In this document: piece by piece, positions 46,297 through 47,116 of the stretch
How the letters are laid out: every line of letters begins with the position of its first letter
Numbering within the stretch: position 1 is the first letter of the stretch
Sequence record: PQ471516.1
From: Escherichia phage Turkey5
Strand: one strand, 5' to 3'
Length of the DNA stretch: 64,000 bases
Position numbers and translations under genes: made by a program
Notes under the pieces: model-generated
Seen by the model: the letters and a program-made list of their open reading frames with translations, nothing else
Databases searched by the model: none
Told to the model about the DNA's origin: nothing

Positions 46297-46634
46297 TTGT
46301 TGTAGGAATTTTTTTAGTACTTTCTATCATTGCAGTTAAATTGGCTGCTGTAGTTCGTTCTAAGTTAGTTGTAGGTGAAGATGGTTCAGTACTGGATTTT
46401 GTTATGGACTATCCAAAAACGTGTGCTATAATTGTACTTGTATTCCAGTTGTTTGGTGCATTTACAGTACGCCATCATCTATACAATTTATATGATTGTA
46501 GTGTTCGCTCTGCATCACAAGGTGTAGAAACAGATTACAGTTGGTACTATGAGAAGTGCCGATTCAAAAACCAACATGGTATTTGGGTTGACTTTGATAA
46601 ATTACGAGGAACACCATCTGGTGAAGAAGAATAA
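46287..46634 (+). CDS. Hypothetical protein with N-terminal TM helix
   Basis: ORF; AAGAGGTGA upstream. Confidence 0.5.
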   Translation: MYLIVVGIFLVLSIIAVKLAAVVRSKLVVGEDGSVLDFVMDYPKTCAIIVLVFQLFGAFTVRHHLYNLYDCSVRSASQGVETDYSWYYEKCRFKNQHGIWVDFDKLRGTPSGEEE

Positions 46635-47116
46635 TGTTTGAATTCCCTGAAGAAGAAAAGAATTACATCGATGCTACTGATGACGGTTATCGTCACATTA
46701 ACATCTATAGTAAAGCGAAAACTAAACTTGGAAGGGATCTATCAAACTTTTCTAATCATAGCTTTAGACTAGAACCTTATGGTTGGTTCCCTTCAGTAGA
46801 GACATTCTACTTCTGGTTCTTAACAGGACAGAAGCATGATGACCTACGTAAAGTATCAGGAGCATCGGCAAAAGCTGCTGCTAACAAGTACATGCATGAC
46901 CGCATTGAGATGACAGATGAATGTATATCTATCATCCAGGATGCTATTTGTGCAAAGATAATGCAAAATCCAGAATTAGCTGAACGCTTAAGTAAGAGTA
47001 AATTACCATTTTGTCATTACTATGTGTACGCTGGGAAAGTTGTAGATGTTTCTGGTGAGCACTCATGGTTTGTTCAGACGTTCGAAGACATTAGAACCGC
47101 ATTGAGGGAATTATGA
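46634..47116 (+). CDS. NADAR (YbiA-like, DUF1768) domain protein
   Basis: INIYS...LSNFS...GWFPSVETFYFWF aligns to YbiA INFYS...FSNFA...WPTSEHYFQAQKF; similar length. Confidence 0.55.
   Translation: MFEFPEEEKNYIDATDDGYRHINIYSKAKTKLGRDLSNFSNHSFRLEPYGWFPSVETFYFWFLTGQKHDDLRKVSGASAKAAANKYMHDRIEMTDECISIIQDAICAKIMQNPELAERLSKSKLPFCHYYVYAGKVVDVSGEHSWFVQTFEDIRTALREL

Follow-up and report, generated by a model that had tools for sequence, protein, structure and literature searches.

A divergent NADAR-superfamily protein of Escherichia phage Turkey5, a candidate de-ADP-ribosylase related to T4 AdfN

Gene, motifs and fold

Here, we describe a gene for a 160-amino-acid protein in Escherichia phage Turkey5 (PQ471516.1), located in a stretch of 64,000 nucleotides that was analysed as a whole and is referred to below as the window. 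Structural and profile-profile evidence, and evidence of that kind only, supports its product as a true but very divergent member of the NADAR superfamily. It is best described as part of a deep sister clade of the family of T4 gp30.3, now AdfN (anti-DarT factor NADAR), which corresponds to PF08010 (Phage_30_3), is referred to as the 'phage NADAR' family and is the nearest known system. Escherichia phage vB_EcoM_JNE01, an Asteriusvirus jumbo phage of 355 kb, shares 97.9% identity with the window, and its copy of the NADAR-like gene is labelled 'hypothetical protein'. The gene and its two N-terminal motifs are as follows.

46634..47116, + strand: coding sequence of the divergent NADAR-fold protein, 160 amino acids, ATG to TGA, the end coordinate including the TGA stop
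46682..46711, + strand: codons 17-26, D-G-x-x-H-I-N-I-Y-S, the first strand; equivalent to YbiA 'INFYS', with the family-specific D17, G18 and H21 in addition
46739..46750, + strand: codons 36-39, the L-S-N-F motif common to all NADAR families; aligns to AdfN 'LSNF' and YbiA 'FSNF'

An earlier reading of the DNA letters (the sequence-only reading) had delimited this open reading frame (ORF) and quoted motifs of the YbiA/NADAR pattern from it. Both observations are confirmed: the boundaries agree exactly, and the translation contains I22-N-I-Y-S26, L36-S-N-F39 and W51-F-P-S-V-E56-T-F-Y-F60, whose counterparts in Escherichia coli YbiA are INFYS, FSNF and WPTSEHYF. The first strand aligns to I17-S21 of YbiA. 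Conservation was counted over 186 family sequences with a median identity of 37% to the query, and these counts are used throughout. In the first-strand motif, D17 is kept in 97%, G18 in 99%, H21 in 97%, N23 in 100%, Y25 in 94% and S26 in 96%; in L-S-N-F, the values are 95% for L36, 97% for N38 and 94% for F39.

The protein itself matches no model of Pfam (PF08719 NADAR and PF08010 Phage_30_3 included), NCBIfam or PADLOC, even at E-values up to 10. Its PHROGs are phrog_652 (E 1.8e-42) and phrog_11222, neither of which has a known function. T4 AdfN, which has been validated experimentally, matches no NADAR chain of the PDB when it is searched as a single sequence, so single-sequence negatives carry little weight in the NADAR superfamily.

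Comparisons at the level of the family are more informative. A profile built from 38 homologs has NADARs as its best sequence matches in the PDB (hmmsearch), with 8bau first (E 7.7e-4) and YbiA, 2b3w, at E 0.014. Among 38 relatives, five touch PF08719 weakly (best E 8.9e-3) and six touch PF08010 weakly (best E 4.9e-4). The AlphaFold2 model computed on the homolog alignment is confident, with a predicted local distance difference test score of 90.6 and a predicted template modelling score of 0.84; submitted to Foldseek, it returns three matches at probability 1.00 with noise beneath them. In a library of viral structures, the model matches uncharacterised relatives first and then many 'NADAR domain-containing' proteins of giant viruses and phages. 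The best profile-profile match, found with hhalign, is to the T4 gp30.3/AdfN family (96.9%, E 1.7e-10, 139 columns), followed by the YbiA-type profile (91.7%, E 7.9e-7); as a calibration, AdfN and YbiA profiles compared with each other give 98.1% and E 1.4e-13. It is the profile search, the AlphaFold2 model, Foldseek and the profile-profile comparison that identify the protein as a member of the superfamily. The earlier assignment to NADAR thus stands as regards fold and profile-profile homology, and does not stand as regards a direct match to a NADAR profile.

Within the superfamily, the phage (gp30.3) branch is nearer to the protein than YbiA is, and the label 'YbiA-like' that it had been given names the wrong subfamily. 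The fold and the N-terminal motifs are common to the protein and YbiA, a housekeeping enzyme linked to the riboflavin pathway, and could be taken to indicate a YbiA-type housekeeping N-glycosidase that acts on intermediates of that pathway. We consider this extremely improbable and have rejected it, given that the defining Glu of YbiA (E125), at whose position the protein has His, and the C-terminal ENDxYWGxGG motif (ENDxYWGDGG in YbiA) are missing. YbiA K55 is absent as well, and the YbiA invariants E125, D130, W133 and G134-G137 have no counterparts; the region reads L-P-F-C-H-Y-Y-V-Y-A-G-K where YbiA has L-V-E-H-T. The protein is also phage-borne and lies nearer to AdfN, and a scan of the ten flanking ORFs turned up no riboflavin genes.

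Active site and predicted activity

Residues were mapped using alignments, the published complex of P. nicotianae NADAR with ADP-ribose (ADPr), and the mutagenesis of E. coli C7 DarG1 and T4 AdfN (PMC11543638, PMC11825919). K80 was placed by a HMMER alignment to 8bau, the chain numbering of which runs +2 relative to that of the paper. Four positions are central.

46799..46801, + strand: E56 (GAG), the Glu predicted to position the ribose; AdfN-T4 E36, P. nicotianae E43, E. coli C7 DarG1 E88, YbiA E48
46820..46822, + strand: L63 (TTA), at the canonical position of the diphosphate-binding Lys, Glu+7; AdfN K43, P. nicotianae K50, C7 K95, YbiA K55
46871..46873, + strand: K80 (AAA); P. nicotianae K75, E. 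coli C7 DarG1 K115, AdfN-T4 Q62
47015..47017, + strand: H128 (CAT), in the L-P-F-x-H-Y-Y motif before the last beta-hairpin; AdfN-T4 H123, P. nicotianae E125, C7 DarG1 D171

E56 is conserved in all 186 sequences, and four alignments place it on the NADAR Glu, which positions the ribose in characterised enzymes (PMC11543638, PMC11825919). H128 is His in 184 of the 186, and hhalign pairs it with H123, an invariant residue of the gp30.3 family; in the model, DSSP assigns a strand to residues 129-132, directly after it. The residue at this last-strand position defines NADAR families, being Glu in YbiA, Asp in DarG1 and His in the 'phage NADARs' (PMC11125620, PMC11543638). The K80 column holds Lys in 185 sequences and Arg in one; AdfN-T4 has Q62 here, but most of the gp30.3 family has Lys. 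The equivalent Lys of C7 DarG1, K115, is dispensable in vitro and needed in vivo to rescue cells from DarT1 toxicity (PMC11543638). Other positions of the superfamily kept in the family are R72, K108 and R154, and there are near-invariant residues that are the family's own: D17, G18, H21, N23, P125, Y129, Y130 and W145. Further conserved basic positions include K27 (87%) and R34 (82% as Lys or Arg).

AdfN and the window protein are alike in being stand-alone proteins of about 150-160 amino acids with a NADAR fold, encoded by orphan genes of lytic E. coli phages. They have in common the LSNF motif, the Glu (E56 and E36), a G-x-x-A-K-x-x-G segment and, above all, the last-strand His (H128 and H123). 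They differ in that AdfN K43 is replaced by L63, that PF08010 does not match the window protein, and that the present family has its own invariant D-G-x-x-H-I-N and L-P-F-x-H-Y-Y motifs. The carriers of the family are jumbo and Vi01-like phages, not Tevenvirinae, and fusions of its members to Macro, DUF4326 or SLOG domains are frequent. Whereas AdfN has proven DNA de-ADP-ribosylase and anti-DarTG1 activities, the activity of the window protein is predicted. That the family is also distinct from AdfN-Bas32 and AdfN-Bas60 can be argued indirectly, as those proteins were found by CDD-based DELTA-BLAST and the window protein is invisible to the same models.

DarG1, the NADAR antitoxin associated with DarT1 (E. 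coli C7; G. lovleyi, 8BAT), has Asp at the last strand, keeps K95, carries an N-terminal extension and adjoins darT1. The window protein, in contrast, is a 160-residue orphan with H128 whose domain starts at about residue 13; it has no ADP-ribosyltransferase (ART) neighbour among the ten flanking ORFs and no match to the DarG models of PADLOC. The Lys at K80, equivalent to C7 K115, is a point of likeness. Identity with a DarG1 antitoxin was rejected, as the DarT neighbour, the Asp and the N-terminal extension are all missing.

We propose, tentatively and with a probability of about 0.4, that the protein is an AdfN-like orphan de-ADP-ribosylase that removes base-linked ADPr, chiefly the guanine-N2-ADPr made by DarT1, from phage DNA. 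This proposal is based on the fold, on AdfN as the nearest family, on the shared His, on the invariant Glu and the K115-equivalent Lys, on the orphan context and probable early expression, and on the hydrolysis of guanine-linked ADPr (G-ADPr) by every NADAR family tested so far. Three unrelated phage NADARs also defeat DarTG1 (PMC11825919, PMC12945103), and for AdfN of T4, Bas32 and Bas60, and for these alone, neutralisation of DarTG1 during infection by G-ADPr removal from phage DNA has been reported (PMC11825919). With these three as direct experimental precedent, the earlier suggestion of a counter-DarT role is a reasonable one.

The predicted course of events, from early timing through catalysis and substrate to counter-defence, would be as follows. 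A stand-alone ('orphan') NADAR-fold ADP-ribosyl N-glycohydrolase, from a large unannotated sister clade of T4 gp30.3/AdfN, would probably be transcribed early by the host RNA polymerase, along with the neighbours to which it is translationally coupled. It would cut ADPr from nucleobases of phage nucleic acid, above all DarT1-type guanine-N2-ADPr on phage DNA, and replication could thereby continue in hosts with DarTG1-like abortive-infection systems. E56 and H128 would lie on either side of the distal ribose, like E43 and E125 in the complex of P. nicotianae NADAR with ADPr, and K80 may help to engage DNA, as proposed for C7 K115. The contact with the diphosphate would be supplied by another conserved basic residue, and K27, R34, R72 and K108 could be candidate substitutes for the missing Lys.

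Several observations weigh against this proposal, beginning with the absence of any match to the standard models given above. The canonical Lys is always seven residues past the Glu, and its mutation cripples E. coli C7 DarG1 and weakens AdfN-T4 (PMC11543638, PMC11825919). Three independent alignments put it on the L63 column, where the 186 sequences have Ser in 45, Leu in 39, Gly in 34, Lys in 18, Ala in 14 and Thr in 10; judged by alignment, this protein and about 90% of the family lack the diphosphate-binding Lys, one of two catalytic residues found across the superfamily. The catalytic residues, whose loss the sequence-only reading had named as evidence against itself, give a mixed picture: of three, two are kept in the phage-NADAR configuration (E56 and H128) and one, the Lys, is lost to L63. 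Two more ADPr-contacting positions depart from the family consensus in this protein (G83 to Ala and R/K84 to Asn), and the counterparts of W89, R93, D130 and W133 of the P. nicotianae ADPr site are unrecognisable in it. That E56, H128 and K80 cluster in one site is something we infer from alignment. Finally, the family's fusions to Macro, SLOG, DUF4326 and Metallophos domains have been read by Iyer et al. as a sign of soluble-ADPr processing.

The loss of a Lys that is essential for hydrolysis in characterised NADARs also bears on a different explanation, namely that the protein is a catalytically weak or inactive NADAR-fold binder that sequesters ADPr or an ADPr-derived molecule, or inhibits a NAD+-consuming defence effector of the host by docking to it. 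A precedent is cited by Johannesman et al.: for one phage NADAR, in contrast to AdfN, enzymatic activity is dispensable (Carabias et al. 2024, on Retron-Eco1, as represented in that citation). E56 and H128, however, which flank the scissile ribose in homologs, are essentially invariant at this level of divergence, a pattern that suits a catalytic site better than a binding surface, and the fusion of relatives to other hydrolytic domains suggests an enzymatic pathway. We consider a binder quite improbable.

The altered active site could also reflect a different base or backbone. The protein might then remove ADPr from RNA or from bases other than guanine, such as cytidine-ADPr or the adenine-N6-ADPr that CmdT-type enzymes place on mRNA, and counter a defence other than DarT1, either an RNA-targeting or a still unknown ADP-ribosylating one. 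NADARs do strip G-ADPr from RNA, and some C-ADPr (PMC12945103); a defence system that ADP-ribosylates mRNA exists, and the authors of the AdfN study expect some phage NADARs to counter other ARTs. Against this, NADARs of the phage (His) and DarG1 types are discussed as guanosine-only de-modifiers (PMC12945103), nothing in the protein's sequence points specifically to RNA, and its relatives occur in DNA-metabolism contexts. Such a role seems improbable.

Distribution, domain fusions and substrate

The family is large. An exhaustive profile search recovered 2,122 cluster representatives at E <= 1e-3, with 731 at E <= 1e-30, and tblastn located the gene in 527 phage records, where every match listed carries the label 'hypothetical' or an equally uninformative one. 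The carriers include Asteriusvirus and RaK2-like jumbo phages, Vi01-like Ackermannviridae, and large phages of Erwinia, Ralstonia, Serratia, Vibrio and Pseudomonas. One homolog, 87% identical, is attributed to Escherichia coli in its NCBI entry (AU458_RS01190); the contig that carries it, of 335,553 bp, is probably a jumbo-phage genome deposited as bacterial sequence.

Many representatives are multidomain proteins. Among 20 that were scanned, the partners are DUF4326 (a predicted phosphatase), YAcAr/YpsA SLOG, Macro and calcineurin-like phosphoesterase (Metallophos) domains; Pfam detects nothing over the NADAR-like part. This part belongs to the same family as the window protein, as the family profile matches it with E-values of 1e-45 to 1e-52. 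The architectures include Macro-DUF4326-NADAR-YAcAr and Metallophos-NADAR. Fused relatives such as BFVD A0A173GE06 (Erwinia phage vB_EamM_RAY) are labelled 'DprA-like protein' on account of their C-terminal YAcAr/SLOG domain, and their NADAR-like module is unannotated.

Iyer, Burroughs, Anantharaman and Aravind (2021, 2022) have described viral DUF4326-NADAR-SLOG/Macro proteins that contain the same NADAR-like family, and of which the window protein corresponds to the bare domain, with no partners in the window. They list 'DUF4326-SLOG-Macro-NADAR' architectures and report NADAR in >48% of medium and jumbo phages (PMC9503650; PMC7824862). The clade was therefore most probably already counted as NADAR in their survey. 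In the literature that we searched, it was not found named, modelled or tested, and searches linking NADAR to Ackermannviridae, Asteriusvirus, CBA120 or PBECO4 returned nothing.

The repeated fusions, together with a stand-alone YAcAr gene near one relative, raise the possibility that the NADAR-fold enzyme hydrolyses soluble, low-molecular-weight derivatives of ADPr rather than DNA adducts. The candidates would be NAD+-derived immune signals, or toxic metabolites, from TIR, SIR2, ART and SLOG defence systems, the destruction of which would blunt signalling or toxicity early in infection. Iyer et al., who describe these fusions, argue by way of prediction that phage NADARs mainly target soluble ADPr derivatives (PMC9503650, PMC7824862). 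A rewired site, with no Lys at Glu+7 and with new invariant residues at D17, H21 and N23, would fit a ligand unlike that of canonical NADARs. On the other hand, action on such signals has yet to be demonstrated for any NADAR, and every one tested so far removes G-ADPr from nucleic acid (PMC12945103, PMC11825919). The Macro and NADAR fusions do not discriminate, as they fit both a stepwise breakdown of small molecules and a dual enzyme in which Macro covers thymine-ADPr (DarT2) and NADAR guanine-ADPr (DarT1). The window protein is itself unfused, partner domains were not found in the window, and K80, which is invariant, is the counterpart of a residue for which a DNA- or DarT1-related function has been implied in vivo. 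We regard a soluble substrate as possible, though somewhat doubtful.

Four NADAR families are recognised in the current experimental literature (PMC12945103). The clade may form a fifth, functionally distinct one, with a rewired site, the Lys gone and near-invariant residues of its own (Asp17, His21, Asn23 and the L-P-F-x-H-Y-Y motif), and with a substrate that is not DarT1 guanine-ADPr but another ADPr conjugate or a NAD+-derived immune signal. We think this rather unlikely. If it were true, the clade, with its about 2,100 protein clusters and its presence in >500 large phages that have been sequenced, would be among the most widespread, so far unannotated, counter-defence enzymes of phages.

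The idea of a phage NADAR acting against DarT appeared in print in 2024-2025, and the de-ADP-ribosylase interpretation preferred here is accordingly not new. What is modestly new is that a very large clade of proteins from big phages, with a partly rewired active site, belongs to the NADARs and has been missed by every standard annotation model. As a class of counter-defence enzymes, phage NADARs were proven only recently; they resemble antitoxins, are encoded as orphans and strip ADPr from phage DNA. A dedicated profile would annotate the genes of this clade at once. The missing 'essential' Lys offers a natural test of which residues NADAR catalysis needs, and of DNA adducts against soluble ADPr signals as substrates. 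Several of the carrier phages are used or considered for biocontrol and therapy, which gives practical value to knowing the host defences that they can neutralise.

Genomic context and transcription

The gene lies among small co-directional ORFs between two perfect sigma-70 promoter sequences. The features around it are as follows.

46287..46634, + strand: upstream ORF, 115 amino acids, phrog_8041, unknown function; its stop overlaps the NADAR-like start (TAATG)
47113..47382, + strand: downstream ORF, 89 amino acids, phrog_35738, unknown function; its start overlaps the NADAR-like stop (ATGA)
42660..42688, + strand: perfect sigma-70 promoter, TTGACA-17-TATAAT, the nearest perfect-consensus one upstream of the gene's array
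45084-45104, + strand: terminator-like hairpin, 9-bp stem with 5 GC pairs and a T-rich tail, after the ORF ending at 45075
47630..47658, + strand: next perfect-consensus sigma-70 promoter downstream
24497, 41447, 42660, 47630, 49926, 55949, 57785 and 58323, + strand: positions of the eight perfect sigma-70 promoters of the window

Through the TAATG and ATGA overlaps, the gene is part of a compact array of small genes. Eight perfect TTGACA-N16-18-TATAAT sequences occur in the window, all on the + strand, against 0.12 expected from shuffles, and the region resembles an early gene block of a jumbo phage driven by host RNA polymerase. The position of the gene between the perfect promoters at 42660 and 47630 suggests that it may be transcribed early by this polymerase. 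Early expression is the usual timing of counter-defence genes. The sequence at 42660..42688 is a candidate promoter for the NADAR-like gene, and that at 47630..47658 probably marks the start of the next transcription unit. The hairpin at 45084-45104 would part the promoter at 42660 from the sub-array of the NADAR-like gene unless it is read through.

Profiles built from the fused relatives found no stand-alone DUF4326, YAcAr/SLOG, Macro or Metallophos partner relatives in the window, and three NADAR profiles found no second NADAR paralog there. The ten flanking ORFs contain no informative domain and no ART. Distant relatives on long contigs are located in phage replication or early regions (Pol A, ThyX, helicase, Metallophos, nearby YAcAr), with no ART partner beside them. 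In Salmonella phage Vi01 (3001-4061), the beginning of a MazG-like pyrophosphatase gene is overlapped by the homolog, Vi01_010, after which come the topoisomerase II subunit genes; this context may be a conserved link to nucleotide and DNA metabolism in Ackermannviridae.

Despite the early-type promoter block, two neighbouring ORFs, 44521-45075 and 48195-48533, fall into PHROGs of 'virion structural protein' (phrog_1383 and phrog_12660), the first of them also with a weak Pfam match to Spore_III_AF, a membrane protein. Three tRNA genes are found on the + strand toward the end of the window: Leu(taa) at 62480-62564, Gly(tcc) at 63530-63605 and Ser(tga) at 63696-63785.
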